In this document: positions 17 through 15,748 of the stretch, piece after piece
Position numbering within the stretch: the first letter of the stretch is position 1
How the letters are laid out: every line of letters begins with the position of its first letter
Assembly: GCA_027005175.1 (NCBI GenBank)
Contig: JALTMC010000330.1
Coordinates: 2,664-19,118 of the forward strand
Length of the DNA: 16,455 nt
Origin: Myxococcales bacterium
Lineage (GTDB): Bacteria > Myxococcota_C > UBA6777
Direction: 5' to 3'
The notes under the pieces: generated by a model
The model's database searches: none
Seen by the model: the letters and a program-made list of their open reading frames with translations, nothing else
Told to the model about the DNA's origin: nothing
Translations under genes and position numbers: made by a program

Positions 17-1828
17 TTAGCTCTGGTTTAAGCGACCACCGAGGTCTTCAGCTTTGCGGGTTTTGCGGGGTACATTTTCGAGGCGGAGTACGCCACGAGG
101 GCAGACTTCGGAGCAGAGGCCGCAGCCGACACAAGAGGCGCGGGTGAAGTTCTGGTTGGATTGTGCGTAGTTGCGGACGTCGATACCCATTTCGCAATAT
201 TTGGAGCAAAGACCGCAGGAGATACACATGTCGCGCTTGACGCGAATACGGAATCGTCCAAGCTTTTGGAGGAGTCCCAGTAGGGCGGCCATGGGGCAGG
301 CGAATCGACACCAAACGCGCGTACCACCGAGAGGATAGAGTCCAACACCTACAACCCCGGAGAGGACGGCAGAGACACCCAACCCGTAGAGTCCTCGGGT
401 TTCCATGGCGATCTGTCCGAGTGGTTTGTTGCCTGAATACCATGCCAGCGCAGTGATGATCGTCATTAGGATGGTGATGACCAGTATAGCGTTGATAGAG
501 AACTTTTCGAAGAGCCAGGCTTTGCTCGACTTGTTGGACAGGTGACGCCAGGGCTCACCAAAGGTATTCGCCAGACCACCACATCCACAAACCCAAGAGC
601 AGTACCAGCGTTTGCCAAATACAATCCCTGCAAGGGGAGCGAGGAAGAGTCCCGCTACAAAGCTGTAGACAATGAAGGGAACAGGAAGTCCGCTTTTGAT
701 CTGGTATGCAATGGTGGAAGGATAGAAGTAGTCAACCTTCAGGGGCCAGATATAGCTGAAGTAGTAGTCCGGTCGTTGGAACAATTTGAGGATCCAGGGG
801 ATCGAAAATGCGATTGTGGCCTGAACAAACATCACAACTGTGGTGCGGATCACCTGATACTTATTGTGCCAGTATTTCCAGATCATATAGGAGCCGCCTG
901 AGGTAATACAGACAGTATAGAGCAGCCCATAAAATACCCACTTGCTGTCGAGGCCCATGGAGAGGGCGAGTTGGCGGAAAGGATCTTGCTTGGCATGCAA
1001 AGCACCCATCAACGTAGGCATCGCGTGAACGGCTGCGACCAAGGTAAAGAAGAAACTCAGCAGCATCACCATTCCGATGAATCGATGGGGGTTTTCGGCG
1101 TGCTCTTTTTTCTTAACCATCACAGTCACACCGCCCAAACTCACAAGCAGCATCCCACCAAAACCAGCCAGAAACCAAAGGAGCAGTTTGAGTCCGGTGC
1201 CTACTCCATAAAATAGAGAGGTCGATGGAGGTGATTTCCCCGGCATGGCAAGAATGAGATAGGTTGATAAAAATAACACCACCAAAGTGGAAGTTAGTAG
1301 TATGGCTAACAATCCAAGGACTTTGAGAGGCTGTCCTTTCTCCTTGCGGTGAGCAAACATAGAGGCCATGCCAAACGCTAAGATGACACCATAGATAGCT
1401 TGAAATATAGCATTTCCTGTAGCTCCCCACTCTAACTGACTTAGGGATTGGGCTAAGCCTGTTTCACCCAACATTTTCATCAGGGCCGGTGTGAAGTAAA
1501 CAAAGGTTGCCAACAAAAGGGTGGCGACCAAGCCGATAGCTGTCTTTGTCATCTGTGCTTTGCGGACAGTCTCGGCTTCTTGTGAGTCAGACCACAGCAT
1601 ATATCCGCCGACCCCAACGATGCCTGCAAAAAGAATATAAAAAATACCACTTTCTGTCGCACTCCACTGGCCTTGGCCCAGACGATGTCCAAAATACAAG
1701 ACGATATAAAATAAAAGAATCGCTGCAGAAAGAAGCCAGGCTGTTATCCCGCGATGAGTCACATCGTGGTGTAACCAGCCTATGGCAGTTTGTCGTCGCA
1801 TGATATGTACTCTCTCTTTATCGTTCAA
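17..1828 (-). CDS. Polytopic membrane polyferredoxin. The C-terminal half is NapH/MauN/CcoG-like, with two membrane CxxxC(P) motifs and two CxxCxxCxxxC(P) 4Fe-4S ferredoxin motifs. The N-terminal half is an extra multi-helix membrane domain.
   Basis: 603-aa ORF with many hydrophobic helices. Motifs seen: WYCSWVCGCGG and VWCRFACP (NapH/FixG-type CxxxCP), then CISCGLCSKYC and CVGCGLCSEVCP (ferredoxin-type 4Fe-4S). Family assignment is from motif recognition only. Confidence 0.6.
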   Translation of the reverse strand: MNDKERVHIMRRQTAIGWLHHDVTHRGITAWLLSAAILLFYIVLYFGHRLGQGQWSATESGIFYILFAGIVGVGGYMLWSDSQEAETVRKAQMTKTAIGLVATLLLATFVYFTPALMKMLGETGLAQSLSQLEWGATGNAIFQAIYGVILAFGMASMFAHRKEKGQPLKVLGLLAILLTSTLVVLFLSTYLILAMPGKSPPSTSLFYGVGTGLKLLLWFLAGFGGMLLVSLGGVTVMVKKKEHAENPHRFIGMVMLLSFFFTLVAAVHAMPTLMGALHAKQDPFRQLALSMGLDSKWVFYGLLYTVCITSGGSYMIWKYWHNKYQVIRTTVVMFVQATIAFSIPWILKLFQRPDYYFSYIWPLKVDYFYPSTIAYQIKSGLPVPFIVYSFVAGLFLAPLAGIVFGKRWYCSWVCGCGGLANTFGEPWRHLSNKSSKAWLFEKFSINAILVITILMTIITALAWYSGNKPLGQIAMETRGLYGLGVSAVLSGVVGVGLYPLGGTRVWCRFACPMAALLGLLQKLGRFRIRVKRDMCISCGLCSKYCEMGIDVRNYAQSNQNFTRASCVGCGLCSEVCPRGVLRLENVPRKTRKAEDLGGRLNQS

Positions 1829-1953
1829 GCGGTCGGTGACCCGGTTTTGTGTGCAAGCGGTCAGTGACTCGGTTTTGTGTGCAAGCGGTCAGTGACCCGG
1901 TTTAAGCGGTCGGTGACCCGGTTTTGTGTGCAAGCGGTCGGTGACTCGGTTTT
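1826..1953. repeat. Tandem array of about 4.5 copies of a 28-bp unit (consensus caagcggtc[a/g]gtgac[c/t]cggttttgtgtg). It sits immediately upstream of the polyferredoxin start on the minus strand.
   Basis: Direct reading: near-identical units follow head-to-tail with one or two substitutions. Copy 3 is truncated (lacks tgtgtg) and the last copy is truncated. There are no unique spacers between units. Confidence 0.8.
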
Positions 1954-1956
1954 ACG

Positions 1957-1988
1957 GTAAAAAACAGTAGATTGGGTATGTTACTGTT
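1957..1988 (-). terminator. Candidate intrinsic terminator after the FAD-oxidoreductase gene (weak, AT-rich stem).
   Basis: On the minus strand, aacagta / 12-nt loop / tactgtt (7-bp stem) is followed by a TTTTTT run, about 5 nt after the stop at 1993. The stem has only 2 GC pairs, so confidence is low. Confidence 0.3.
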
Positions 1989-1992
1989 TGAC

Positions 1993-3279
1993 TCATCGAA
2001 CCAGGGGGATCTCGGTGGTTTGCATGTTGTCGAGTTTTGCGCGGCCAAATTCGACGTCGTATTGGGCTTTGTGGAGGTTTTCCAAGACATATTGTGGTGA
2101 TCTTGCTTCCAATACCCAGTCTTCCAATACTTCGTGATCCCATCGGGACCCAAGCATATTGAATCCAAGAACCTTGGTACCATCATGGGCAATTCGCTGT
2201 GATATCGGTTGTCCTGGCATCTTGCGATAAATCGTAGGGGAGCCTTCAGGAAGTGTTTGGACAGCTCCCACTGTGGTATATTCAATCTCAAAAAACTTGG
2301 AGCTGTTGAAGAAAAGAGGAGGCTTGTATACTTCGCGTTGCCCGACGATGTTGCGTGCTACGTGAGCCCCCTGTCGTTTGGCGGAGTACCAGATCAACTC
2401 TGTGGTGGGGCGTTCTTGTCCGGGGAAATGGATCTCTGCACAGTCTCCGGCTGCGTAGACATTTTTTTGCGGCGTTTCGAGATACTCATTAACCACAATC
2501 CCCCGACCTAACTCGGGAGGTTGGGAGAAGTCTTTGAGTCGGTCGATGTTGGGGCGTACGCCTGCTGCGATTCCGAGCATCTGACACTCGATAACGTTGC
2601 CTTTGTTGGTATGGACTGCTTTGACACGGCCATTGTCATCTACTTCCACACGAGTCATTTCTTCAGTCAGGCGGACATCGACACCATGGTGTCTCATCTC
2701 TGCTGTAACAAAAGTAGCTTCTTCTTCACCCAGTGCCATGGGCCAATAATAGGATTCTCGAACCAGGAAGGTGACTTTGACACCGTGATGTCTCAGGCAC
2801 TCGACCAGCTCAATGCCAATCAGCCCGCCTCCGATTACAACAGCATGTTGTGTGCTGGGTGTGAGGCGTTCACATTGTTCCAGGTCTTGCATGGATACAA
2901 AGTGAACTTTGCCTTCTTTCACTTGATCCATACCGTCCCAGGGGAACATATTGGGCTTGGCTCCTACAGCATAGACAAGCTTGTCGTAGGGAATGCGTTC
3001 GCCATTGTCGAGCACGACTTGTTGGGTTTGCGTGTTGCAATCGACCATCCAGCCCTTGATGAGCTTGATATCTTGTCGAGCGTACTCTGAGCGTTCATAG
3101 GGCTCCAGATCTCGTCGTGTGAGTTTATCCATATAAGCGTACATCAACGCTGTACGGGAAAAAAAGTATTCGGTCTCCCCGCTGAGTACTGTAATGGATG
3201 CATCCTTGTCGTGTTTTCTGACTGTCATAGCGCAGGTGATGCCCGCTACACCATTTCCGATGATAACAACCCTCATCAA
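1993..3279 (-). CDS. FAD-dependent pyridine nucleotide-disulfide oxidoreductase family protein (rubredoxin/ferredoxin-reductase or NADH-oxidase-like).
   Basis: 428 aa. N-terminal VIIGNGVAG dinucleotide-binding motif at residues 5-13. A second Rossmann motif, VVIGGGLIGIE, lies mid-protein. The AAGDCAE motif is typical of the family. The specific substrate is not assignable. Confidence 0.8.
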   Translation of the reverse strand: MMRVVIIGNGVAGITCAMTVRKHDKDASITVLSGETEYFFSRTALMYAYMDKLTRRDLEPYERSEYARQDIKLIKGWMVDCNTQTQQVVLDNGERIPYDKLVYAVGAKPNMFPWDGMDQVKEGKVHFVSMQDLEQCERLTPSTQHAVVIGGGLIGIELVECLRHHGVKVTFLVRESYYWPMALGEEEATFVTAEMRHHGVDVRLTEEMTRVEVDDNGRVKAVHTNKGNVIECQMLGIAAGVRPNIDRLKDFSQPPELGRGIVVNEYLETPQKNVYAAGDCAEIHFPGQERPTTELIWYSAKRQGAHVARNIVGQREVYKPPLFFNSSKFFEIEYTTVGAVQTLPEGSPTIYRKMPGQPISQRIAHDGTKVLGFNMLGSRWDHEVLEDWVLEARSPQYVLENLHKAQYDVEFGRAKLDNMQTTEIPLVR

Positions 3280-3543
3280 ATACTCTCCTCCCTTGTTTGT
3301 TTTCTGCGTTTTAAAGAAACTTTGTTTCGATTGACCCTATACATACGAACAAACGATGCTTCTAGTGTGAGGTCGCTGTGATGCAAATTCTGCTACACTT
3401 GAATTTAACTGTATGATGTTTTCTATGGGCTCCCAGCAGCTTCTGAAAGACATGGACATCGCGAAATTACCTGTGAGTTCACCGTTCTGGTTGTTGGAGC
3501 AAGCTGGAATATTTCGGCAACGATGCGGTCTCTTTGTGAAAAC

Positions 3544-3658
3544 AAGGAACAAACAAGCTCCTTCTTAAGAAACAAACAAGTTTCTTCTTAAGGAACAAGC
3601 AAGTTTCTTCTTAAGGAACAAGCAAGTTTCTTCTTAAGGAACAAGCAAGCTCCTTCTT
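3544..3658. repeat. Five head-to-tail copies of a 23-bp unit (aaggaacaagcaagtttcttctt). Each unit has internal dyad symmetry (gaaac...gtttc), and each junction forms ttcttaaggaa around a CTTAAG core.
   Basis: Direct reading. Units 3 and 4 are identical. Units 1 and 5 carry the same variant (ctcc). Unit 2 is a perfect GAAAC-aaacaa-GTTTC palindrome. The array lies about 265-380 bp upstream of the oxidoreductase start on the minus strand. Confidence 0.8.
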
Positions 3659-4082
3659 GCGGTCCTTTTACAGTGTTTGAGTAAAAATACGCTATGGTTT
3701 GGATAGGATGATGGAAATAAAATGGACATGACCATGACCAGGAATGGCCTCCTTTGGTGTGCAAGTTTGCTTCTTTCTCTCGTGGGGCTAAAACCACCGA
3801 CTCTGAGGAAGAAAAACCCGACTGAAGTCGGCTCAGCTCTTTGTTTTTCCCTGTAGGGTAAGTGGTTTTGAGTGCTCTTTTGTATACTTCTCACCCTTAG
3901 AGTAGGACTGCAAGCTCCACGAAAATACAGGAGGTTCCGCTAGAAGCGACGATTGATGAACTTGAATATCTCAAATCGCACTCACAAGCACGCGGTTTTC
4001 TCCTGAATGTATTCGTTCAACTTGTTGGGTTGCCATTTCTACGTCCATTTCTTTTACTTCGTGACTCACACTCTGCTGTGCT

Positions 4083-4454
4083 TCACACCAATTCATCACT
4101 GTCTTTCGGGGTTTCTCTAACAAGGACTAGGATAGCACTTTGTGGGACGATATGATACTTTTCCCCCTCAAACTCCAGTTCAATGGCTGCTTTTTTTAGG
4201 AATAGAGCGTGATCTCCCGGTTTTGCTTCCATGGGCATATAGCGGACAGAGACTTCGGAGGAGCTCCAGTCTGTGAGCAGGGAAGGCTCCACAAGCGGGG
4301 TGCCTCGTCCTGTTTTAATGATCGTCCCTTCCAGGACATCTTCTTTATCGCGGACAGTGTCCGGAAGATAGAGACCCACCTCTGTTCGCTTTTCGGAGTC
4401 ATCGACTTTTAAGAGAACCCGGTCTCCAATGACAATCAGTTCTGTGGTGTTCAA
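4083..4454 (-). CDS. Divergent Cpn10/GroES-family co-chaperonin-like protein (123 aa, TTG start). No GroEL partner is adjacent.
   Basis: Pattern match to GroES: the N-terminus has DRVLLK (cf. DRVIVK), a mobile-loop-like segment, and a KPGDHALF...IVPQSAILVLV C-terminal beta-hairpin region. A strong SD (aagaggt) sits 6-8 nt upstream of TTG. It is longer than canonical GroES. Confidence 0.55.
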   Translation of the reverse strand: MNTTELIVIGDRVLLKVDDSEKRTEVGLYLPDTVRDKEDVLEGTIIKTGRGTPLVEPSLLTDWSSSEVSVRYMPMEAKPGDHALFLKKAAIELEFEGEKYHIVPQSAILVLVRETPKDSDELV

Positions 4455-4591: not shown

Positions 4592-5350
4592 TTAGGCGTT
4601 GGCACTTTTGATAATTCCGATGAAGTCTTCTGCTTTGAGGGCTGCTCCGCCGACAAGGGCACCGTCGATGTTCTTTTGGGAGAGCAGTTCTCTGCTGTTC
4701 TTGGGCTTGACACTGCCACCATAGAGGATTCGTACAGCGTCTGCGACATCGGGGGAAAAGAGCTGAAAGAGGTGTGCACGGATAAAGGCGTGAGCTTCTT
4801 CTGCTTGTGTGGGAGTGGCGGTTTTGCCTGTTCCAATCGCCCATACAGGTTCGTATGCGATGATAAGCTCGGAGCCTTCTTCGTGAGTGAGGCCTGTGAG
4901 GCCCTGAAGGATCTGTTGTTCAATGACTCTGACAAAGTCGCCGCGTTCACGTTCTTCCAGGGTCTCTCCAAAACACACGATGGGGATCAGATTGTGTTGG
5001 AAGGCTGCCTTGATTTTCTTGTTGACGATCTCATTGGTTTCACCGAAGTATTTGCGACGTTCGGAGTGGCCGATAAGGATATAATCTGCGCCTGCATCTT
5101 TGAGGAAGGAGGGGGAGATCTCTCCAGTGAAAGCACCACTCTCTTCCCAATGCATATTTTGCCCTGCGACGCTGATATAGGATTTTGCACAAAATTCAAC
5201 GACAGTATCGAGCGCTGTAAAGGGTGGGGCGACAATCACATCCACTTCACCAGGCCAGGTGAGTCCATAGTGGAGACCTTGAACAAGCTCCAAAGCCTGC
5301 CTCTTGTGCATGTTCATCTTCCAGTTGCCAGCAATCACCGGAGTTCTCAT
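4592..5350 (-). CDS. tpiA: Triosephosphate isomerase.
   Basis: Hallmark TIM motifs: VIAGNWKMN near the N-terminus, GHSERR, and AYEPVWAIGTGKTAT. I chose the internal ATG at 5350 (MRTPVIAGNWKMN), preceded by a ggggag RBS. The ORF-track start at 5419 adds a non-conserved 23-aa extension. Confidence 0.9.
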   Translation of the reverse strand: MRTPVIAGNWKMNMHKRQALELVQGLHYGLTWPGEVDVIVAPPFTALDTVVEFCAKSYISVAGQNMHWEESGAFTGEISPSFLKDAGADYILIGHSERRKYFGETNEIVNKKIKAAFQHNLIPIVCFGETLEERERGDFVRVIEQQILQGLTGLTHEEGSELIIAYEPVWAIGTGKTATPTQAEEAHAFIRAHLFQLFSPDVADAVRILYGGSVKPKNSRELLSQKNIDGALVGGAALKAEDFIGIIKSANA

Positions 5351-5538
5351 CTCTCGCTCCCCTGTCAATCCAATACCTGAACAAAGAAAAAAGGGGCATA
5401 CGATCATCCATAAGGTCAAAACAAAGAGAAACTTATCATGCCCAATTGATACATTGTGAGTTTAGCAGAAAAATGGCAACAAGCCCAAAAACTACAGGTT
5501 CGGAAGGTGCATGATGATCTCCATCCTACTTTGCAAAC

Positions 5539-5698: not shown

Positions 5699-5814
5699 CG
5701 ACTTCGTTGCGGTAGCTGAGAAGAGAGCGTCTTGGGTCTTTCAGGAAACAGCACAGCCGTCAGCATATGACTTCGTTGCGGTAGCTGAGAAGAGAGTGTC
5801 TTGGGATTTTCAGG
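5699..5814. repeat. Two copies of a 47-bp direct repeat (gacttcgttgcggtagctgagaagagag[c/t]gtcttggg...ttcagga), period about 69 bp. The second copy abuts or overlaps the aldolase stop codon.
   Basis: Direct reading, about 44/47 identity. The repeated PKTLSSQLPQRS in the 5416..5934 shadow ORF is the same DNA repeat translated. Confidence 0.75.
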
Positions 5815-6703
5815 AGTTTCCCTGAAAGATCTTCTTGACCTCATCAAGGACAAGTTCTTCGAGTCGTGTTGGGTCGATGGGGACAGAGGCTTCGGTCCCT
5901 GCTGCTTTTGGTGACGGAGGCTGTGTTGTGTCAACAGATTTGGTCTCTTGTTTCTGTGTTTTGGCTTGTTGGTGGAGTTCTTCTTTCCACTGTTGGCGTG
6001 CTTCCTTTTCTCGCAGAGCTTTTTCTTGGAGGGCTGCTATTTTCTCTTGTCGGTTTTGGGGTCCTAAGCCGATGGATGCACGTTTTTTGAGTAGAGTGTC
6101 ACGATGTTCTTGAGCTAGGGTCATTGGCTGCCCCATTTGCATGGCATAATATTCGATTTTGGCGAGATGCTCGACAAGCTCGAGGCGTAGCCATGCTTGT
6201 TCAAGGTCATCTCCAATGGCTAAGATCCCATTGCCTGTCATCATGATGACATCGGCGATTTGCAATCCATCATGGATCAGTTTGTCATTCTCGGGAGCGC
6301 CAGGCATTGCAAAAGGGGTGACAGGAATACAGTCACCAATGGATACGATAGCTTCAGGGAGTGCTGGATATATTGGCTGGTTGACAAGGCCTCGTGCGGT
6401 GACAAAGGGGGGGTGGGCGTGGACCACAGCGTTGGCATCGGGTCTTGCACGGTAGGCGGAGAGGTGGAGCTTGATCTCCGAGAAAGGTCTGCCGATCCCC
6501 TCGATCTTTTTGCCCTCCATATCGAGGGTGATGACCATCTCTGGCTTGATGGAAGCTTTGCTCTCGGAGGTTGGGGTGGCGAGCAGCACATCGTCGAGGC
6601 GAGCGGATATATTGCCATCGTGATTGGCGGTGAAACCTTTATGGTCTAGTTTTTGAGAGATCTCTGCAATCAGGTTGCTGAGATAACTTCGCCTTGAACC
6701 CAT
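5810..6703 (-). CDS. Class II aldolase/adducin-family enzyme (FucA-like: fuculose/rhamnulose-1-phosphate or 5-deoxyribulose-1-phosphate aldolase type). It has a C-terminal Lys/Glu/Gln-rich linker and a terminal amphipathic helix that resembles a BMC encapsulation peptide.
   Basis: YRARPDANAVVHAHPPFVTA matches the FucA metal-binding region (YQSRPDANAVVHNHAVHCTA). The catalytic domain is about 210 aa. A roughly 85-aa tail then follows, ending PIDPTRLEELVLDEVKKIFQGNS (amphipathic, EP-like). Confidence 0.85.
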   Translation of the reverse strand: MGSRRSYLSNLIAEISQKLDHKGFTANHDGNISARLDDVLLATPTSESKASIKPEMVITLDMEGKKIEGIGRPFSEIKLHLSAYRARPDANAVVHAHPPFVTARGLVNQPIYPALPEAIVSIGDCIPVTPFAMPGAPENDKLIHDGLQIADVIMMTGNGILAIGDDLEQAWLRLELVEHLAKIEYYAMQMGQPMTLAQEHRDTLLKKRASIGLGPQNRQEKIAALQEKALREKEARQQWKEELHQQAKTQKQETKSVDTTQPPSPKAAGTEASVPIDPTRLEELVLDEVKKIFQGNS

Positions 6704-6708
6704 TGATT

Positions 6709-7362
6709 TTAACCCAACTGACTTCCGGTCTTGGTGGCTTGCATATGGTTGAGATGCTCAATGGCTTGTAGGGCAGCTTCTGCGCAGGAATCGATCTCCG
6801 ATTCCTTTCCGCTCAAGATCAGCCGTCCCGTTGCACCGTAAGGTTTGATGTGAATCAGTTTGACCTCTGCTGCTTTGAGTGCCTCGTTACAAATGAGGGA
6901 CATATAGGAAGCGGGCTTGGCTTCCAGAATCAAGAGTGATTCACCCGAGAGGACCATGTTCCCAGAGGCGAGGCTGGAGAAAAACATGGAGTGATCCTTT
7001 TCAACACCTCGGATGATCTGGTTGGTCAGGAGTTGGATCGGGGCGCGGTCATTTTCGTCCAATCCTGTTTCTCGAAGAACGGCTCGACCCGCTTCTTGAA
7101 CTTCGCCGTGGGTCGGATGGTGAACGACAAACAAACCAAAGTGTCGCTCTGTGATGATCTCTCCGAGTCGCACGCTTGTGCCCTTTAAGGCGAGGTCAAC
7201 CATACGGTGGATCTCCATGGCAGGTGAGATCTCCATCACCAGCGCAGAATCGTACTCTGAGGGATCATAGACGCTATTCTTTTGAGCAATAAACTGGGCC
7301 AACTGAGGTTGCAAACTGTCGATAAAAGTGAGGGTTCGCAGCTCGAAATATTGAGATAGCAT
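6709..7362 (-). CDS. BMC-T shell protein of the EutL/PduB type (tandem permuted BMC domains).
   Basis: 217 aa, about EutL length. It has two internally repeated halves. The second half, LLILEAKPASYMSLICNEALKAAEVKL...ILSGKESEIDSCAEAALQAIE, parallels EutL [23 protein letters not shown]...FLTGSQAACKAACNAF. A GGAG RBS lies upstream. Confidence 0.65.
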   Translation of the reverse strand: MLSQYFELRTLTFIDSLQPQLAQFIAQKNSVYDPSEYDSALVMEISPAMEIHRMVDLALKGTSVRLGEIITERHFGLFVVHHPTHGEVQEAGRAVLRETGLDENDRAPIQLLTNQIIRGVEKDHSMFFSSLASGNMVLSGESLLILEAKPASYMSLICNEALKAAEVKLIHIKPYGATGRLILSGKESEIDSCAEAALQAIEHLNHMQATKTGSQLG

Positions 7363-7415
7363 GAGTGCTCCGGTGCTTCGGTGTCTTTCGGTGTCTTTCG
7401 GTATCCAGGGGGAGA

Positions 7416-8330
7416 TTAATATTTTCCTTTTGCGGCTTTTTTTCCAGTGACAATGGCGATACTCGCTGAAGCACCGATTCGATTGGCTCCAGCCTTTATC
7501 ATCTTTTCCGCGTCTTCTCGTGAACGAACACCGCCAGAAGCTTTGACTTCCATGTCACAACCTACCACTCTTCGCATCAGCTCGACATCTTCTACAGTGG
7601 CTCCACCTGAACCAAAACCGGTGGAGGTCTTTACAAAGGCTGCACCGGCTGTTTTGCTAAGTGTACAGGCAATGACTTTTTCTTCGTCTGTGAGACTTGA
7701 GTTTTCAAGGATGACCTTGACTTTGTAGGGTGCTGAAGCTTTGACAACTTCGCGAATGTCTTCATACACCAGTTGGTACTCTCTGGACTTGAGTGCACCG
7801 ATGTTGATAACCATGTCTATCTCTTGGGCACCGTTTCGGATCGCCTCTTTGGCCTCAAAAGCTTTGGCATGACTCGTTGATGCGCCCAATGGAAAGCCAA
7901 CCACCGCGATGGGTTTGACGCCAGAGCCTCGCAATTGTCGTGCGACCAGCGGGATATTGCTCGCGTTGACGCAAACGGTAGCAAACTGATAACGCTTGGC
8001 TTCGTCGCAGATATTTAACAACTCTTCTCGGGTAGCATCCGCCTTTAATAAGGTGTGGTCGATGTATTTGGCGAGAGTATGGTCGATCTTCTCTCCAAAT
8101 CCAGGCTTTGCGCCAATTCGTACAGCGCCGGAGTTGATAATATTGCCACAGGCATCTTTTTTGATTGTGGCACAATGACCACATCCATCGCAGTTATCCA
8201 TGGAGAGCAGACAGGGGGCATCTCCACAAGACCCACCAGCTTGCATGCCGGCTCCACCGGATTGCAAGCGCTCCACCACTTGCTGGGTGATCTTGCGGAC
8301 AATCTCATCAAGGTTGTTATTTTGACTCAT
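7416..8330 (-). CDS. deoC: Deoxyribose-phosphate aldolase with an N-terminal extension of roughly 75 aa. The extension is an EP-like amphipathic helix followed by a Gly-rich linker and a six-Cys cluster.
   Basis: DeoC core motifs: [42 protein letters not shown], and VKASGGVRS (Schiff-base Lys region). N-terminus: [16 protein letters not shown], then GGAGMQAGG, then C-x4-C-x6-C-x2-C-x2-C-x7-C. Confidence 0.85.
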
Positions 8331-8349
8331 GGCGAACCCTTATCTTTTG

Positions 8350-8622
8350 TTATTCTGCACAGAATACCTTGTCTACAATACCAACAATTACCGAGTGAAA
8401 TGGATCGTCTTGTGTGCCCAGGAGTTGACGGGCTGAGTTCCCTTCTCGTTGGACAAGGACAACATCACCTTCTCCTGCCTGAACAGAGTCACAGGCAAGA
8501 AATGATTGTCCACAATCGTTGCCTTTTTCGTCGATGGGGTGAACGATAAGAACCGTATGTCCCTCAAAGCAGGGATGCTTTTCTGAGGCAACCACATTTC
8601 CTTTAACTCTTCCCAAGATCAT
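8350..8622 (-). CDS. BMC-P vertex (pentamer) shell protein, EutN/PduN/CcmL family.
   Basis: 90 aa. MILGRVKGNVVAS N-terminus and overall pattern typical of Pfam EutN_CcmL. Its start overlaps the stop of the upstream BMC-P by 4 nt (ATGA). Confidence 0.8.
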   Translation of the reverse strand: MILGRVKGNVVASEKHPCFEGHTVLIVHPIDEKGNDCGQSFLACDSVQAGEGDVVLVQREGNSARQLLGTQDDPFHSVIVGIVDKVFCAE

Positions 8623-8927
8623 GTCCCAAAGATCTCCTTTTTCCCGACGATCCCACTATCTTCGTTACTATAGACTTGGTCCACAATTCCGGTAATGGCA
8701 GCATCTACCGGGCTGAAGGGGTTGGGAAGTGCTAAGCTGGCTTCGCGAGACATGGTGAGATAGACCAAGTCATCAGGGCCAGCCTGAACAGAGTCGATGG
8801 CCACAAAGGGCTCTCCAGAGGGTTCCAGTCGGTCGTTGAGAGGCTCCACCATCAGGAGCTTAATCCCCTTCAAGGATGGGTCTTTGACTGTGGCTACCAC
8901 TGTGCCAATTACTTTTGCCAGTTGCAA
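8619..8927 (-). CDS. BMC-P vertex shell protein (second paralog).
   Basis: 102 aa. MQLAKVIGTVVATVKD N-terminus and FVAIDSVQAG motif, EutN/CcmL-like. Confidence 0.8.
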   Translation of the reverse strand: MQLAKVIGTVVATVKDPSLKGIKLLMVEPLNDRLEPSGEPFVAIDSVQAGPDDLVYLTMSREASLALPNPFSPVDAAITGIVDQVYSNEDSGIVGKKEIFGT

Positions 8928-8938
8928 TGTCTTATCTC

Positions 8939-9496
8939 CTACCTCTGGAATACTTTTTCAAGAAATTCAGGATGGGGGGAAGGGATGATCTCATAATTGG
9001 CTAACATACCTTCTTTTTGTGCATAACGCCATGCTGCTTCCATCGATGCTTCAAGTTGGTGGAGTTCTCCGGTGATCACAAAGTAGCCTTTTCCTCCGAG
9101 TCCACTACCCAATTTGAGTTCTACGAGTTGAACAGGTGTTGTCTTGGCTGCTCGGTCAGCGGCAAAAACGCAAGAGCATACGGAGAAGGTTTCGACGATA
9201 CCGATAGCACCGAAGGTCTCAATCGCGGTGCTTCCTGCGATCGCCGATAGCACGCTGTGATGGAGTTGAGGGATGATAATGTCATGGACGAGCCCGTCTC
9301 CGGCTGCCACAACACCAGCCTTGTGAGATTCTTCCACATCCCCCACTTCACCACCAAAAAGAGTGATGTACTTTCCGGGAGAGATCGGGTGGGATTGGAG
9401 AATCCGTACGGGCGCCTTTTTGGCAATGGCATCGGTGGAAAAGATACCTTTTGCCACAGACTTGTATTCGATCATCCCGAGAGCGGGCTCCTGCAT
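8939..9496 (-). CDS. BMC-T shell protein, PduT-like (tandem canonical BMC domains). The Fe-S ligand Cys of PduT is replaced by Ser.
   Basis: ALGMIEYKSVAKG...SHPISPGKY aligns to PduT AIGILELTSIAKG...SKTICPGKF (C to S). The second domain is AIGIVETFSVCSCVFAADRA. I chose the start at the internal ATG (MQEPALGM), preceded by aggaaaagagga. The ORF-track start at 9535 adds 13 aa. Confidence 0.75.
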   Translation of the reverse strand: MQEPALGMIEYKSVAKGIFSTDAIAKKAPVRILQSHPISPGKYITLFGGEVGDVEESHKAGVVAAGDGLVHDIIIPQLHHSVLSAIAGSTAIETFGAIGIVETFSVCSCVFAADRAAKTTPVQLVELKLGSGLGGKGYFVITGELHQLEASMEAAWRYAQKEGMLANYEIIPSPHPEFLEKVFQR

Positions 9497-9507
9497 TCCT
9501 CTTTTCC

Positions 9508-10839
9508 TTATCGTCTGGTGCGAATCTCGATCCATGCGTCACAAATATCGCTAACATGACCTGCAATGGATGCATGAAAACACAACCCAAGTTGATCCAG
9601 TGGACTCTCTGCTATCCTATCACCCATTCGTACCCTTTCTCCCACTCGTACCTGGGGGATCACAGGTACACCAAAGCGTTTCTCAAGCGGTACTCGAACC
9701 AAGCCAACGTGTTTTGTCCCCTCGTAAGGGAGCTTTTGAAGATAGCGCTGAATATCCATCTTTTTGAGCAGCATGGGAAGGGATACCCTGGCATTTTCGT
9801 AACCGGAACGTACCTTTGGCTCTTCTTGTGTTTTGGGATAGTGAAGTCCTCTTTGCTCTAACTCATTCCGGGTCTCTGCAAAAAGCTGTCGGGGAGAGAG
9901 TTGCATCACATCACAGGCTATCAAGTCGCAGACACCGCACTGGCTGCACAAAAAGGAAGACATCAAGTGCTCTGTGTCTACCTTGTTGTAGTTGATGGCC
10001 CGCATCATTTGATGGGGAAAGATGTCGTGCCCTGCGAGGTAGCGTGGACACATGTCTGTGCATCGCATACACTGACTGCAAGCCGCCTTGGATTGTTTTA
10101 GCATCTGTGTGGTGCTTTTGCTTTTTATGCGAATGATACAGTGGTCTTGTGCCAAGACCGTGATCCCATTTGTTGTTTTGGTGATCCCAAGACTGTGGTT
10201 CTGAACCAACCCTCCTCGCAGTGGACCCCCATCCAAAATGGCTACAGGATGTTGTGTGGTGCCGCCTGCCATATCCAATAGATCACTGTAGGTTGTTCCT
10301 ATCGGTACTCTTACGATTTTGGGTTCCGCGACCTCTCCCACGATACTGACGAGCTTTTCTGTGACAGCCTTCCCTCCCATTGCCCGAGCCATCTGAGCCA
10401 ACGATACAACATCATTCACGACAATACCGATGTCTCTGGGGCTTCCTCCTTCAGGAACAACACGCTTTTTGATGTCGTAGGTGAGGTGGACTTCATCTCC
10501 GGTCGGATGGTGGTCTCTCAGCGGAAAGAGTGAAATGGAGCCATCAGAGGGGAGAGCCTGGTTCAGAGACTCGAGCAACTTCGGTTGTGCTCCTCGGGTT
10601 GCGATAATTCCTTCCCGGGCTCCTGTCGCCGTCATCGCGAGCTTCAAACCGTCCATGACGAGATCGGGTCTTTCTTCCATTAATACCGTGTCGGTGGCGA
10701 GGAGAGGTTCGGATTCACTGCCATTGGCAATGACTGTATCCGCTTTCGCCAAGAGCTTGCGATACGTTGGTTCTCCCCCATCTCCGGAATCCATAATCCC
10801 AGCCAGTCGAACAGCATTGATGATCGCATTTCGCTTCAT
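9508..10839 (-). CDS. PduS-like (RnfC/Nqo1-like) Fe-S flavoprotein. It has a divergent N-terminal nucleotide/flavin-binding motif.
   Basis: Two 4Fe-4S motifs: CSQCMRCTDMCP and CSQCGVCDLIAC. The N-terminal SGDGGEPTYRKL sits where the plus-strand paralog has GAGGGGFPAHVKL. SESEPLL sits where the paralog has AECEPLL. Confidence 0.8.
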   Translation of the reverse strand: MKRNAIINAVRLAGIMDSGDGGEPTYRKLLAKADTVIANGSESEPLLATDTVLMEERPDLVMDGLKLAMTATGAREGIIATRGAQPKLLESLNQALPSDGSISLFPLRDHHPTGDEVHLTYDIKKRVVPEGGSPRDIGIVVNDVVSLAQMARAMGGKAVTEKLVSIVGEVAEPKIVRVPIGTTYSDLLDMAGGTTQHPVAILDGGPLRGGLVQNHSLGITKTTNGITVLAQDHCIIRIKSKSTTQMLKQSKAACSQCMRCTDMCPRYLAGHDIFPHQMMRAINYNKVDTEHLMSSFLCSQCGVCDLIACDVMQLSPRQLFAETRNELEQRGLHYPKTQEEPKVRSGYENARVSLPMLLKKMDIQRYLQKLPYEGTKHVGLVRVPLEKRFGVPVIPQVRVGERVRMGDRIAESPLDQLGLCFHASIAGHVSDICDAWIEIRTRR

Positions 10840-10851
10840 AAGACCGATACT

Positions 10852-12348
10852 TTAGAGGACACCAAAGTATCCCTTGAGGGTACATCTTCGGATACGAGTA
10901 AATGTGCGGGCTGTGGTCATGCCTTCTCCTGTGGGAGAGGCGATGGTGAAGGATGTTGGCCCTTCACCTCCCAGACCCAAACCCGCCAGAGAGCCGCCGT
11001 TTTTGACAAACAAACTTGTGTTCATCTTGATGGCCATCTTGTGCATATTGTCGATATTTTTGGAGTGAATGCAGGCGGTGTGAAAGCAGCCTTGTTCCAG
11101 TGTGTATGCGATATCGATCGCCTCATCGATATCTCTGGCTTGTATCAGTGGAACAACGGGCAACATCAACTCTTGCACAGCAAAGGGGTGATCTGCGTCG
11201 GTTTGAGTAATGGCCAGCCGCTTGGAGGCATCCACTTCCATCCCAATCTCTCGCAAGATGACCTGAACATCCTTACCCACAAACCTCTTTTCAACATGCC
11301 CATGATCGTCCAGGATAAGGTTCTTCAAGCGTCTGGTTTGGAAAGGGCTCAACTCCACGGCCCCGTGTTTGAGCATGTATTTCTTGAGCGGAGCAAGAGC
11401 TTTTCTTGTGGCGATGATCTCCTTTTCGACCACACAGATAATATTGTTGTCTGTGCTTGCACTGGTCACGATGTCACGTGCGGCTTGTTCCAAATCGGCA
11501 GTCTCATCAACAACCACCGGAGGGTTCCCCGGTCCGGCAGCGATCACTCGTTTCCCCGACTGCATCGCAGCTCGCACAACAACAGGGCCGCCGGTGACGA
11601 CCAACAGTCGGATACCTCGGTGCTTCATCAATCGCTGTGCGCTTTGGATGGTGGGAGAGCGCAAGGTGGTGAAGAGGTTGGGGGGACCCCCCTCTGAGAT
11701 GACCGCTTTGTTCATGATGTTGATCGTAAAGAGGGATACTTTTCGGGACGAAGGGTGAGGGTGAAAGACCACACTGTTTCCACCTGCCAACATCCCAATA
11801 CCGTTGTTGATAATGGTCTCTGAGGGATTGGTGGTGGGGGTGATGCTGCCGAGAACACCGAAGGGACATCTCTCTTCGAGAGTGAGCCCGTCGTCTCCCA
11901 CAAAACTGTTGGCTTCAATGTCTTCAACACCAGGGGTCTTGAGAATAGCAAGGCGGTTTTTTACCAGCTTGTCTTCATACCGGCCAAGCCCCGTTTCCTC
12001 CACGGCCATTCGGGCCAGATCTTCAAGGTGCTCCATGCAGATCTCACGAACCGCTGCAACGATCCTTTTGCGTTGCTCTATAGAGATGCTCCGAAATTCT
12101 TCGAATGCCTTCTGTGCCGCTTCTACAGCAGTGTCAAGGTCGGGAAAACAGCCCAACTCTCCCACACCCGAGCCCCAGGCTCGTGGACCCGGTACAAATG
12201 TAGGGCGGGCAGGAGGCGAAGGGGCCAGTACGGGAACAGAAGTTCGAGGGAGTGCTTGGGTAGGGTTGGAAGGCTCGTGGGAATCGACTGCCAACTGCTC
12301 GACGACGCGGTCGACAATGGAGCGAATTTGATCGTCCGTCACTTTCAT
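10852..12348 (-). CDS. CoA-acylating aldehyde dehydrogenase (PduP/EutE family) with an N-terminal encapsulation peptide and Pro-rich linker.
   Basis: Aldehyde dehydrogenase superfamily core, about 450 aa. N-terminus MKVTDDQIRSIVDRVVEQLA (amphipathic EP), then the linker PSNPTQALPRTSVPVLAPSPPARPTFVPGP. I chose the ATG at 12348 (ggaaaggtgg RBS). The ORF track starts 4 codons earlier at GTG. Confidence 0.85.
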   Translation of the reverse strand: MKVTDDQIRSIVDRVVEQLAVDSHEPSNPTQALPRTSVPVLAPSPPARPTFVPGPRAWGSGVGELGCFPDLDTAVEAAQKAFEEFRSISIEQRKRIVAAVREICMEHLEDLARMAVEETGLGRYEDKLVKNRLAILKTPGVEDIEANSFVGDDGLTLEERCPFGVLGSITPTTNPSETIINNGIGMLAGGNSVVFHPHPSSRKVSLFTINIMNKAVISEGGPPNLFTTLRSPTIQSAQRLMKHRGIRLLVVTGGPVVVRAAMQSGKRVIAAGPGNPPVVVDETADLEQAARDIVTSASTDNNIICVVEKEIIATRKALAPLKKYMLKHGAVELSPFQTRRLKNLILDDHGHVEKRFVGKDVQVILREIGMEVDASKRLAITQTDADHPFAVQELMLPVVPLIQARDIDEAIDIAYTLEQGCFHTACIHSKNIDNMHKMAIKMNTSLFVKNGGSLAGLGLGGEGPTSFTIASPTGEGMTTARTFTRIRRCTLKGYFGVL

Positions 12349-12450
12349 CAGAAAAACCACCTTTCCCTTTGGGAAGTACTGGTTTTGCTGGCGACAAAAC
12401 CAGGAGAGGGGGTGCCATAGGCATACAGGAGAAGAGAATCTTCTTCCGAA

Positions 12451-12738
12451 TTATTTGCTGTAACGCGTTTCCCCGTGAACCTCTACGAGGTCAACAATCG
12501 CCATAATGACGGTGTCTACTGGTTTTCCCTGGGTTATTGTTGTCTGGCGAGCCGCACTGCCCGCAGCAACAAGAACAACCTCTCCAATGCCGGCACCGAC
12601 AGAGTCGACGGCAACAACCATCCCTCCTGTCTCCTGGCATTGGACGTCAAGGTACTTGACGACATGCAGTCTTATTCCTTCGAGCTTCTCGTCTTTCTGT
12701 GTTGAAACGATCGTTCCAACAATTTTCCCGAGTTGCAT
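12451..12738 (-). CDS. BMC-P vertex shell protein (third paralog).
   Basis: MQLGKIVGTIVSTQKD...VVAVDSVGAG, EutN/CcmL-like. I chose the internal ATG at 12738 with an aaggag RBS 6 nt upstream. The 43-aa ORF-track extension is not conserved-looking. Confidence 0.8.
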   Translation of the reverse strand: MQLGKIVGTIVSTQKDEKLEGIRLHVVKYLDVQCQETGGMVVAVDSVGAGIGEVVLVAAGSAARQTTITQGKPVDTVIMAIVDLVEVHGETRYSK

Positions 12739-12971
12739 CAATGCTCCTTCAACGAGAAGAGAACGAAGCCCAAGTACCCCTTTCTTTCGAGCACCAACCC
12801 CTTGGTTTGTGGCTGCTGAAACCAACATGACACAATGGGTTTGTCCCGTAAGGGGGGACGGGAGCACTCAGGTACAATCACAGCAATGCAGAGTGTCTGA
12901 ATCTTGCGATCATCTCTGTGATGACTCCCGTGTCGGGATCACGTTCTCTGGTCGGATTGTCCAAGGTTTGA

Positions 12972-12991
12972 GTTGCTGTTGAACGCTCAAC
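12972..12991 (-). other. 7-bp-stem hairpin (ctgttga-acgc-tcaacag) just downstream of the BMC-H stop. It has no U-tract and is a possible intra-operon RNA structure.
   Basis: Inverted repeat read directly. Its position between the BMC-H and BMC-P genes is analogous to attenuating hairpins after shell genes in other BMC operons (inference). Confidence 0.3.
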
Positions 12992-12999
12992 AGTCCGTC

Positions 13000-13296
13000 T
13001 CAATCCCCAGACTTCTCACCATTGCGACCAAGGGGGAGTGTGCTATCTACGTTGGAGTGAGGTCTGGGAATCACATGAACGGAGACAAGCTCACCCACTT
13101 TTTCAGCCGCTCTAGACCCTGCTTCTGTCGCCGCTTTGACAGCCGCCACATCTCCACGAACAATGACCGTGACAAAACCACCACCGATCTTTTCGTAGCC
13201 AACAAGCTCTACTTTCGCTGCTTTGACCATCGCGTCAGAGGCTTCTACGACTCCAACAAAGCCTCTTGTCTCAATCATCCCTAATGCATCAGCCAT
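13000..13296 (-). CDS. BMC-H hexameric shell protein (PduA/PduJ/CcmK type, Pfam BMC).
   Basis: [57 protein letters not shown] is near-canonical for BMC-H. 98 aa. Confidence 0.9.
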
Positions 13297-15147: not shown

Positions 15148-15150
15148 TTT

Positions 15151-15726
15151 ATGAGCTGGAGAAGTTTCGATAAACCCACTCCCCCTGCTATCGGTTTTCT
15201 GGAGCTTTCAAGTATTGCTCGTGGCATTGAAGCTACAGATGCGATGCTCAAAGCTGCCGATGTTCTCCTGGTGCTTGCCCGAACCATCTGCTCGGGAAAA
15301 TACATGGTTTTGGTCGCTGGTGAGGTTCAGGACATCGAAGCCAGCGTCGCCGCTGGCGTTGCAATCGGGAAGGAATGTACCATCGATCAATTTATCATTC
15401 CCAATGTTCATCCCGCTGTATTCCCTGCGGTGTCTTCCTCTGGTATGTTCCGCGGTAGCGGTGCTATCGGTATTATTGAGTCCTTCTCGGTAGCCTCTTT
15501 AATTGAAGCCATCGATCAGATCGCAAAAGCGGCACTGGTCGAGGTGGTGGAGTGTCGTCTTGCGATGGCTCTAGGTGGAAAAGCATATGTTGTCTTTACG
15601 GGCGATGTTGATGCCGTTCAATACTCCATTGATGCAGGCGCTGAGGTTGTTAAAAAGCGCGGTCTTTTGGTCAACCAGGTCGTCATTCCCAACCCTCGAA
15701 AAGAGTTGTTTGACACCCTGATCTAG
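15151..15726 (+). CDS. BMC-T shell protein, PduT-like, retaining the 4Fe-4S ligand Cys.
   Basis: AIGFLELSSIARGIEATDAMLKAADVLLVLARTICSGKY aligns to PduT ...KTICPGKF. The second BMC domain is AIGIIESFSVASLIEAIDQIAKAA. Its ATG is 3 nt after the PduS-like stop, with a gaggt RBS. Confidence 0.8.
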   Translation: MSWRSFDKPTPPAIGFLELSSIARGIEATDAMLKAADVLLVLARTICSGKYMVLVAGEVQDIEASVAAGVAIGKECTIDQFIIPNVHPAVFPAVSSSGMFRGSGAIGIIESFSVASLIEAIDQIAKAALVEVVECRLAMALGGKAYVVFTGDVDAVQYSIDAGAEVVKKRGLLVNQVVIPNPRKELFDTLI

Positions 15727-15748
15727 ACCGAGACAAAAGGAGCTACAG

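Follow-up and report, generated by a model that had tools for sequence, protein, structure and literature searches.

A 297-residue class II aldolase (ORF translation; gene at positions 5810-6703, minus strand) is very probably a cargo enzyme of a microcompartment (BMC) of the SPU5 type, with a helix at aa 279-295 as encapsulation peptide (EP) and a polar helix ahead of it as an expansion of the linker that acts as a spacer. The gene lies in a 16,455-nucleotide stretch of DNA, all of which was analysed and is referred to as the window. Within the gene, the following elements were distinguished.

6062-6703, minus strand: catalytic domain of class II (FucA-like) aldolase, aa 1-214, identified by Pfam, phmmer and Foldseek
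5939-6061, minus strand: K/E/Q-rich polar segment, aa 215-255, a predicted 41-residue alpha-helix, from the AF2 model and composition
5870-5938, minus strand: Pro/Ser/Thr-rich flexible linker, aa 256-278, from the sequence and the lack of secondary structure in the AF2 model
5819-5869, minus strand: C-terminal amphipathic helix TRLEELVLDEVKKIFQG, aa 279-295, a predicted EP, from the hydrophobic moment, the AF2 model and the motif
5810-5818, minus strand: last two codons (Asn-Ser) and stop codon of the aldolase gene, from the sequence

The catalytic domain ends with a conserved segment, KRASIGLGP (aa 206-214). Pfam gave a match of PF00596 (Aldolase_II) to aa 11-184 with 131 bits against the gathering cutoff of 22.2, and by phmmer the protein aligned with E. 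coli FucA over aa 5-213 (E=1.8e-21). In a Foldseek search of PDB, the AF2 model (mean pLDDT 92) matched the B. thuringiensis 5-deoxyribulose-1-phosphate aldolase DrdA (6BTG) and FucA (1FUA) over about 205 columns, with E of about 1e-18 and target-normalised TM-scores of 0.87-0.89. By the Pfam score and the FucA-like fold, the aldolase is a member of the PF00596 family. FucA and DrdA share the fold of aa 1-214, but both are without a C-terminal extension, unlike the window aldolase. Among the metal and catalytic residues of FucA, E73, H92 and H94 correspond to Glu76, His95 and His97, whereas the third zinc ligand H155 is replaced by Asn158, Y113 by Glu117 and Y209 by Ile211; the FucA set of H92/H94/H155 plus E73, Y113 and Y209 is thus incomplete, only E76, H95 and H97 being kept. 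The score against TIGR01086, the model of FucA proper, was 89.8 bits versus a cutoff of 400, below equivalog level, and the scores for all other NCBIfam aldolase, epimerase and decarboxylase equivalogs were far under their cutoffs.

The end of the FucA alignment at aa 213/214 sets the start of the tail proper, which comprises 83 residues (aa 215-297); the span 5810-6080 codes for aa 208-297 and the stop codon. In the AF2 model, with residue numbers shifted by +1 to count the initial Met, a helix of aa 215-255 (block-mean pLDDT 88-97) is followed by a low-confidence linker of aa 256-278 (block pLDDT 51-72) and a terminal helix of aa 278-293 (block pLDDT about 91). The peptide KIAALQEKALREKEARQQWKEELHQQAKTQKQETK corresponds to aa 221-255 and the Pro/Ser/Thr linker SVDTTQPPSPKAAGTEASVPIDP to aa 256-278. 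In the preliminary description, a domain of about 210 aa had been followed by a tail of about 85 aa, built from a K/E/Q-rich segment, a Pro/Ser/Thr linker and a terminal helix; this division was confirmed, and all the peptides quoted there were found in the translation.

The Eisenberg hydrophobic moment of RLEELVLDEVKKIF was 0.64, and the C-terminal 18-residue window gave the highest moment anywhere in the aldolase. The same value was equalled in 118 of 5000 shuffles of the last 22 aa (frequency 0.024); taken alone, the amphipathicity is only moderately significant. The terminal motif h..hh...h..h, sought in the last 32 aa, was present in 100 of the 120 closest homologs versus 65 of 595 control windows, and the top homologs all carry the KRASIGLGP anchor, a variable linker and the conserved terminal motif. 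The family consensus is D-x-[LI]KK[LI]IAEEI[KR]KxLQG, and the end of the window aldolase fits it. The terminal helix is a family feature and not a product of chance. As defined by Kinney et al. 2012 and Aussignargues et al. 2015, an EP is a terminal predicted amphipathic alpha-helix of about 15-20 aa, preceded by a poorly conserved linker, encoded in a locus with shell proteins and missing from non-BMC homologs. In the window aldolase, the helix (moment 0.64, AF2 278-293) follows linker columns that are almost wholly unconserved, the gene stands in a locus coding for shell proteins, and the extension is missing from FucA, DrdA and the closest homolog outside a BMC context, in line with the locus counts given below.

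The length of the tail varies widely. Complete homologs ending in the terminal helix have tails of 18-83 aa, with the domain-to-helix linker spanning roughly 5 to 65 aa; the median tail of the subfamily is 37 aa versus 83 aa in the window aldolase, and the linker of about 64 residues is about twice as long as that in 118 of the 120 closest homologs. The earlier statement that the linker is unusually long thus holds within the subfamily, but not beyond it, since tails of 60-110 aa occur in other BMC aldolase clades and published linkers span 23-81 aa. A degenerate copy of the EP was also sought at the start of the K/E/Q segment (KIAALQEKAL): the Smith-Waterman score of this stretch was 16 against the EP of the same protein, equalled in 956 of 2000 shuffles, and 16 against the family EP consensus, reached in 1706 of 2000 shuffles, and an EP duplication was rejected.

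The surroundings of the aldolase gene contain the following elements.

6709-13296, minus strand: rest of the operon, 5' of the aldolase gene, from Pfam scans and the gene order in loci L001, L082 and L083
12283-12348, minus strand: N-terminal EP-like helix of an acylating AldDh (MKVTDDQIRSIVDRVVEQLAVD), followed by a Pro-rich linker, moment 0.67
8253-8330, minus strand: N-terminal EP-like helix of deoxyribose-phosphate aldolase (DERA), moment 0.71, equalled in 22 of 5000 shuffles
4592-5350, minus strand: triosephosphate isomerase (TPI), downstream of the aldolase gene, Pfam TIM 323 bits

The rest of the microcompartment operon, at 6709-13296 on the same strand, codes for BMC-H, BMC-P, AldDh, a PduS-like protein, BMC-T, BMC-P, BMC-P, DERA and a CsoS1D-like tandem BMC protein. 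The shell genes among these are the BMC-H gene (13000-13296), three BMC-P genes (12451-12738, 8619-8927 and 8350-8622) and two tandem-BMC genes, BMC-T (8939-9535) and the CsoS1D-like one (6709-7362), whose 217-aa product has an identical counterpart in locus L081 that is annotated with PF27545 (CsoS1D_N). A third tandem-BMC gene is located at 15151-15726 on the plus strand. The AldDh matched NCBIfam NF011927 with 626 bits and the DERA matched TIGR00126 with 277 bits, both over cutoff. The TPI, which probably starts at Met24 of the ORF (the gene is called as 252 aa in L081), has no EP-like extension. No match to Rfam was obtained at gathering thresholds in the window, including the 459-bp gap downstream of the aldolase gene.

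The order BMC-H, BMC-P, AldDh, PduS, BMC-T, BMC-P, BMC-P, DERA, CsoS1D-like, aldolase and TPI is the same in L001, L082 and L083. The aldolases of these three loci retain the terminal helix on tails of 40-47 aa; the N-terminal helix of DERA is also kept in all three, and that of AldDh in L001 and L083. The closest homolog outside a BMC context (P0002, locus L085), which has 71% identity and comes from the same metagenome, ends after GLGPQNRNL at a stop that is genuine, and none of the reading frames there codes for an EP. The aldolase family thus offers a clean natural example in which the helix is kept, the linker varies freely and the closest non-BMC homolog is tail-less.

On a wider scale, a tail of at least 25 aa was present in 43 of 49 loci with shell genes versus 5 of 16 loci without them, the latter having at least 5 kb on both sides of the aldolase and no shell gene (Fisher p = 3.5e-5 for 65 loci among the matches listed). 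These loci came from a scan of genome contigs and belong mostly to distant clades, the best identity being 52% among the matches listed; tail length was taken as the criterion, and a strict EP regular expression under-called the EPs of other clades. In four of the five shell-less loci with a tail, the aldolase has an EP-like end, and these loci could be satellites. Six shell-adjacent aldolases, those of the HO-like myxobacterial loci L003-5, L011 and L048 and of L009 (Caldithrix MAG), are without any tail, and therefore the tail is not obligatory for BMC association. The proposal that the aldolase is built like a BMC cargo enzyme targeted through its C-terminus was borne out: the C-terminus shows amphipathic periodicity, the helix is conserved among homologs and is present in the orthologs of otherwise identical loci, it is missing from the closest non-BMC homolog, and it agrees with the literature. 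The main confirmation is that EPs are recognisable by reading of the sequence only.

The polar helix was also described as coiled-coil-like and as a possible mediator of cargo-cargo scaffolding. If it were an interaction module, in the form of a coiled coil or of a bundle of the four tails of the tetramer, it would cross-link cargo and let the aldolase organise the BMC core. Such a role is suggested by the high-confidence, continuous 41-residue helix of the AF2 model, by a weak a/d series (I222-L225-A229-W239-L243), by a shorter K/E/Q helix (about 26 aa versus 39 aa in the window aldolase) kept in the sole related lineage, P0121 of locus L086, and by the composition of the linker, the most charged and Gln-rich of the 54 BMC aldolase tails compared (KREDQ fraction 0.48, and 0.50 in the near-identical L081, versus a median of 0.26). 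The segment consists of 41% charged residues and 23% Gln, but only 5 of 39 residues are strongly hydrophobic, hydrophobic residues fill 4 of 11 a/d positions in the best heptad register, the hydrophobic moment is never above 0.27, and pairs of opposite charge are not above those in shuffles (i/i+4, 3 versus 2.96; i/i+3, 1 versus 3.10). No syntenic ortholog has the segment, nor, except for the 100%-identical P0001, does any of the 120 closest homologs; in an alignment of 36 sequences, 33 of 35 homologs are gapped through its body, and short non-homologous stretches of P0003 and P0091 align at this position. A word-indexed search with the tail as query and an exhaustive HMMER search of 1.84 billion representatives gave P0121 as the only further long-tail carrier, and the sequence of the segment, like its length, differs between the two carrier lineages. 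Co-aggregation of cargo has been ascribed to the EP helices themselves (PMC4594438; PMC7221423). Because neither heptad nor salt-bridge periodicity was detected and the segment is missing from syntenic orthologs, the coiled-coil and scaffolding idea is unsupported, and an interaction module is unlikely; by sequence comparison, the K/E/Q helix is a lineage-specific insertion of a very narrow lineage. A single-alpha-helix (SAH) domain that binds nothing, but as a rigid spacer holds the EP about 6 nm off the tetramer and tunes the packing density, would fit the highly charged and polar composition, the long isolated helix of the AF2 model and the flexible linker that follows. The defining feature of an SAH domain is a high density of i/i+4 Glu-Lys/Arg pairs, and such pairs occur here at the level expected from shuffles; together with the Gln content and the lack of conservation in orthologs, this makes an SAH spacer very unlikely.

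Two other explanations concern the terminal helix and the tail as a whole. In E. coli FucA, residues of the mobile C-terminal tail contribute to catalysis, and Y209 mutants were among the PDB matches; the terminal helix, conserved in sequence beyond its hydrophobic pattern, could likewise be a lid of the active site or an oligomerisation element instead of a targeting signal. The equivalent of the FucA C-terminus is, however, KRASIGLGP (aa 206-214) and not the terminal helix, which is set off from the domain by a linker varying from about 5 to 65 aa. The tail-less P0002 keeps the ANHDGN and GNG active-site motifs of the clade and the HAH metal-ligand motif, and the presence of a tail follows that of shell genes. 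A catalytic or regulatory function is accordingly highly improbable. That the tail is a meaningless low-complexity extension, arising from read-through, annotation or assembly, might be suspected from the metagenomic source and from a low-complexity composition in which Q, E, K and A account for 46% of the final 90 aa, but the frame is open as far as a terminal motif that fits the family consensus, the same gene, differing by one substitution, is present on the independent contig L081, and no repeat of at least 9 nt was found in the tail DNA. An artefact has next to no likelihood, being effectively refuted by the conservation data.

As an EP-bearing cargo enzyme, the aldolase would reside in the lumen of an SPU5-type sugar-phosphate-utilising BMC, as its sequence features and genomic context suggest. 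By analogy with characterised EPs, the terminal helix (aa 279-295) would bind to the inner face of the shell and may co-aggregate with the EP helices of the co-encoded AldDh and DERA; through this co-aggregation, it is proposed, the three enzymes would be packaged together. FucA-type aldolases are homotetramers, and on this ground four EPs would be displayed per particle. The 64 residues between catalytic domain and EP would form a tether, composed of the polar helix of 41 residues (about 6 nm when helical throughout) and a flexible Pro/Ser/Thr stretch of about 23 residues. The polar helix appears to be a recent lineage-specific expansion of an otherwise short and freely varying linker, and most likely plays the role of a plain spacer. 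Given the confident 41-residue helix of the AF2 model and the shorter K/E/Q helix kept in P0121, a role that goes further than passive spacing is conceivable. One such role is that of a multivalent hub, in which four rigid polar arms of about 6 nm, each tipped with an EP, enable the tetramer of this narrow lineage to space and nucleate the BMC core. Although improbable, such a hub would be an analogue of CcmN or a CsoS2-like organiser, and would show how scaffold functions can evolve by expansion of linkers. The current understanding of BMC assembly is left unchanged by the aldolase tail. The SPU5 consensus EP, [LI]KK[LI]IAEEI[KR]KxLQG, together with the natural helical spacer, is a possible C-terminal targeting tag.

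By gene content, the locus matches the published SPU5 type of sugar-phosphate BMC, which is described as being without RPI and with a CsoS1D-like BMC-T(dp), a BMC-P triplet, PduS and TPI (PMC11585597). The class II aldolase, PduS homolog, TPI, BMC-P triplet and CsoS1D-like BMC-T(dp) were all found in the window, together with DERA (PF01791) and the acylating AldDh with its N-terminal EP, as identified by TIGR00126, NF011927 and the N-terminal helices; no match to RPI (PF02502) or PF06130 was found in the 20 ORFs scanned, which cover the 16.5-kb window only. SPU5 loci and the window are thus alike in DERA with an N-terminal extension, a feature reported on all SPU DERAs (PMC11585597), in AldDh with an N-terminal EP, in the PduS homolog, TPI, BMC-P triplet and CsoS1D-like BMC-T(dp), and in having neither RPI nor PTAC. 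A C-terminal EP has been predicted for the SPU5 class II aldolase (Commun Biol 2024, PMC11585597), and the window aldolase likewise ends in an amphipathic helix after a linker; the 41-residue polar helix of this linker sets it apart from its closest homologs, except for the identical P0001. The EP is of a known type already described for such enzymes, and the tail, correctly read in the preliminary description, is an ordinary member of this type. A C-terminal EP of about 17 aa behind a non-conserved linker of 23-81 aa was described for 21 of 23 BMC class II aldolases (Aussignargues et al. 2015, PMC4594438), and a C-terminal EP was also reported for the ACI aldolase (Sutter et al. 2021, PMC8217296). 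The aldolases of PVM (PMC4594438), PVM-like, GRM5 and ACI types and that of the window have in common PF00596, an amphipathic EP of about 17 aa at the C-terminus and weak conservation of the linker, and the window linker of about 64 aa falls inside the range of 23-81 aa for the PVM, PVM-like and GRM5 types (PMC4594438). They differ in the active-site signature, GNG/ANHDGN in the window aldolase versus NHG/A[AS]NDGN in the other types, and in the EP family, which is of the LIAEEIKKAL type in the window aldolase versus ELTALIEDAVRNLK (ACI-like) or LVAEITRRVMAELNR (Firmicute types); the linkers of the ACI-like and Firmicute-type clades are rich in P, S, T, G and A, often with Cys, whereas that of the window aldolase is rich in K, E and Q. 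CcmN of beta-carboxysomes resembles the window aldolase in having a C-terminal EP helix behind a long linker (23-277 aa in PMC4594438), but its folded domain is unrelated and it is a dedicated assembly factor, whereas the window protein is an enzyme.

The class II aldolase contains an aldolase domain at aa 11-184 (Pfam, 131 bits). Since the alignment with E. coli L-fuculose-1-phosphate aldolase (FucA) extends to aa 213/214, the true tail is aa 215-297, 83 aa in length; the region 5810-6080 delimited in the preliminary description covers aa 208-297 and the stop codon. The gene and the three parts of the tail are as follows.

5810-6703, - strand: class II aldolase ORF, 297 aa
aa 215-255: K/E/Q-rich stretch, 41% charged and 23% Gln
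aa 256-278: Pro/Ser/Thr stretch
aa 279-295: terminal helix TRLEELVLDEVKKIFQG

The amphipathic character expected of the C-terminal end was borne out: the terminal helix gave an Eisenberg hydrophobic moment of 0.64 over 14 residues, equalled in 118 of 5000 shuffles of the last 22 aa, and the highest 18-residue window of the entire protein is its C-terminus. In the AlphaFold2 model (36-sequence alignment; mean pLDDT 92; numbering +1 for the omitted Met), an unbroken helix at 215-255 (block pLDDT 88-97) is followed by a low-confidence linker (pLDDT 51-72) and a second helix at 278-293. By Foldseek and phmmer, only the first ~210 residues match solved structures, FucA and DrdA (5-deoxyribulose-1-phosphate aldolase) among them, and the tail has no counterpart there. 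The preliminary description of an aldolase with a charged segment, a Pro/Ser/Thr linker, and a terminal helix like an encapsulation peptide (EP) thus stands as written, except for the term "coiled-coil-like".

A protein search with the window aldolase yielded 2077 matches, and the best 120 of these, cluster representatives, were used as the homolog set. Two apart, a 100%-identical copy and a tail-less protein of 220 aa, the best 120 range from 232 to 275 aa in length. Counted from the conserved KRASIGLGP anchor, the tails of this set have a median of 37 aa with an interquartile range of 33-40, and the 83-aa tail of the window protein is the longest. Three zones can be told apart in the alignment: the catalytic domain and a terminal block, both conserved, and between them a linker that is not. 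The pattern h..hh...h..h was found within the last 32 aa in 100 of these 120 homologs versus 65 of 595 control windows drawn from the catalytic domain. The terminal consensus is D-x-[LI]-K-K-[LI]-I-A-E-E-I-[KR]-K-x-L-Q-G, with which L-E-E-L-V-L-D-E-V-K-K-I-F-Q-G of the window protein agrees at all hydrophobic and acidic positions. Examined for its absence from orthologs of identical loci, the EP-like helix proved to be present, being kept after short polar linkers in the syntenic orthologs P0015 (...QLDALRDIIAGEIRNALNG), P0033 (...QLHKLIAQEIRKILAGEQ), and that of locus L001 (...DPLRTLIESEIQNFLKGK).

The presence of the tail, defined as at least 25 aa past the FucA-equivalent end, is associated with genes for the bacterial microcompartment (BMC) shell. 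Among the matches listed, all in loci fetched from genomes, tails were found at 43 of 49 loci close to shell genes versus five of 16 loci that extend 5 kb or more to either side of the aldolase and lack a shell gene (Fisher p = 3.5e-5). Four of these five exceptional loci encode aldolases with EP-like ends, and shell genes are present in other members of their clade; such loci may be satellite loci. Six tail-less aldolases beside shell genes (five HO-like myxobacterial loci and one Caldithrix MAG) are also included among the matches listed. The nearest non-identical homolog, P0002 (71% identity; contig L085, 90-752), from the same metagenome sample as L081, the contig with a near-identical copy of the window gene, ends at a real stop codon directly after GLGPQNRNL, with EP-like sequence downstream in no frame. 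Its neighbours are non-BMC genes, with an M20-like peptidase downstream, and tblastn detected no shell, triosephosphate isomerase (TPI), or CsoS1D-like matches on L085. P0002 is a natural tail-less paralog, in which the GNG/ANHDGN active-site variant (see below) is retained.

The genes from 13296 down to 4592 are all on the - strand, the same as the aldolase, in the order BMC-H, BMC-P, acylating aldehyde dehydrogenase (AldDh; NF011927, 626 bits), PduS-like flavoprotein, tandem BMC-T, BMC-P, BMC-P, deoxyribose-phosphate aldolase (DERA; TIGR00126, 277 bits), CsoS1D/CcmP-like tandem BMC protein, class II aldolase, a 459-bp gap, and TPI. Neither ribose-5-phosphate isomerase (RPI) nor a PduL-type phosphotransacylase was found among the 20 window ORFs scanned. 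This locus matches the SPU5 subtype of sugar-phosphate-utilisation BMCs, described as lacking RPI and as combining a class II aldolase, TPI, and a PduS homolog with a BMC-P triplet and a CsoS1D-like BMC-T(dp) (PMC11585597). The identical gene order is found in L001 (Bacteriovoracaceae MAG), L083/L084 (Bdellovibrio sp. MAG), and L082 (metagenome contig). The window's two other aldehyde-related cargo enzymes, AldDh and DERA, each start with an amphipathic helix followed by a linker (DQIRSIVDRVVEQL for AldDh, hydrophobic moment 0.67; for DERA 0.71, equalled in 22 of 5000 shuffles), and the syntenic loci conserve both. TPI carries no EP-like extension, in contrast to the TPIs of SPU4 (PMC11585597); its ORF as listed (4592-5419) begins at TTG, but the true start is likely Met24 (MRTPVIAGNWKMN), giving 252 aa as called in L081.

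Several other features of the locus were observed. Between its N-terminal EP helix and its domain, DERA carries a Cys cluster, C-x4-C-x6-C-x2-C-x2-C-x7-C (aa 35-61; 8148-8228), which resembles an Fe-S or metal-binding motif; its C-x2-C-x2-C core plus one upstream Cys is kept in L082 (4122-5039) and L083 (8347-9309) and absent from L001, and PMC11585597, the SPU paper, does not mention it with DERA in its main text. A 47-nt direct repeat is present in two copies (5700-5746 and 5769-5815; 94% identical, 69-nt spacing), beginning at the aldolase stop codon and lying inside the non-coding gap before TPI. Rfam gave no match, and one weak terminator-like hairpin was detected at 5807-5828. In the syntenic Bdellovibrio locus this gap is missing, and aldolase and TPI abut. 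On the + strand (13804-16414), genes for another PduS-like protein (447 aa) and another tandem BMC-T protein (191 aa) diverge from the main operon; after them comes a Lys-rich 221-aa protein whose N-terminus resembles a signal peptide and which matched nothing in Pfam or NCBIfam. Downstream of TPI (- strand, 17-4454) are three genes, for a divergent GroES/Cpn10-like protein (123 aa, scoring below NCBIfam cutoffs), a 428-aa pyridine-nucleotide-disulfide oxidoreductase, and a 603-aa polytopic membrane protein bearing a NapH-like 4Fe-4S domain; together they could provide the PduS-like proteins with an outlet for electron transfer.

Judged from the alignment, the K/E/Q segment is an insertion: its body is gapped in 33 of 35 homologs, and only short non-homologous stretches of P0003 and P0091 are aligned with it. 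Searched alone against 5.8 billion proteins, the tail gave one relative, P0121, again the sole relative by exhaustive phmmer of 1.84 billion cluster representatives (E = 3.6e-10). P0121 is located on an 835-bp contig, L086; interrupted by one in-frame stop codon, its frame extends upstream to encode a catalytic domain that is closely related. The order of its tail is GPQSRQERIAELRQKEAEKQKAKQVEKK, a longer Pro-rich linker, and HLEELVLDEVKKLFQDN; the charged helix is ~26 aa versus 39 aa in the window protein and unlike in sequence, and the EP is near-identical in both lineages. In L086 1-561, this stop replaces the invariant Gln of DDLEQAWLRLE, and may reflect a sequencing error, pseudogene formation, or recoding.

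The preliminary description had regarded this segment as coiled-coil-like and as a possible scaffold. The best heptad register, however, places hydrophobic residues at only four of 11 a/d positions and the hydrophobic moment is 0.27 or less throughout, supporting neither a coiled coil nor a coiled-coil scaffold. An SAH domain is likewise unsupported, opposite-charge pairs being no more frequent than expected (i/i+4, 3 observed versus 2.96 expected; i/i+3, 1 versus 3.10), and a duplicated EP was rejected. Beside the tails (35 aa or longer) of 54 BMC-type aldolases of other clades, where 60-110 aa occur, the length of the window tail is ordinary, but its KREDQ fraction is extreme (0.48, and 0.50 in L081, versus a median of 0.26); in the other-clade tails P, S, T, G, and A, and often Cys, are abundant. 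The charged helix is thus best read as a lineage-specific helical expansion of a freely varying linker, a specific scaffolding role being unlikely and unsupported.

As an enzyme, the window protein cannot be classed as FucA: all NCBIfam equivalogs score far below cutoffs, Asn158 (GNG; 6230-6232) stands where FucA has its third zinc ligand, H155 (HHG), and Glu117 and Ile211 stand in place of Y113 and Y209. DrdA is among the closest structures. The GNG Asn is found throughout the SPU5/HO-like clade (13 of 85 aligned sequences, including L001, L003-L006, and L081-L085), always paired with His in ANHDGN (His28; 6620-6622); in the other clades of BMC aldolases, A[AS]NDGN goes with NHG. These residues suggest a remodelled metal site and an unassigned substrate. 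Of no less interest than the tail are the active-site variant, the DERA Cys motif, and the downstream repeat.

The anatomy, conservation, and context of the tail support the proposal of a C-terminally targeted BMC cargo enzyme, from which we infer packaging, most likely by the established EP mechanism. FucA-type enzymes are tetramers, and therefore an aldolase particle would present four EPs, with the 41-residue helix extending their reach by ~6 nm (0.15 nm per residue). The terminal amphipathic helix would hang on a flexible or poorly conserved tether, drive cargo co-aggregation, and attach to the inner shell surface (PMC4594438; PMC7221423; PMC11585597), with docking between shell tiles as described by Gu et al. 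2024 (as cited in PMC11585597).

Such C-terminal targeting is already in the literature. [quoted passage not shown] The linker of ~64 aa lies inside the published range, indicating that the window protein belongs to a known kind, and the sole distinctive trait of its tail is the polar helical make-up of the linker.
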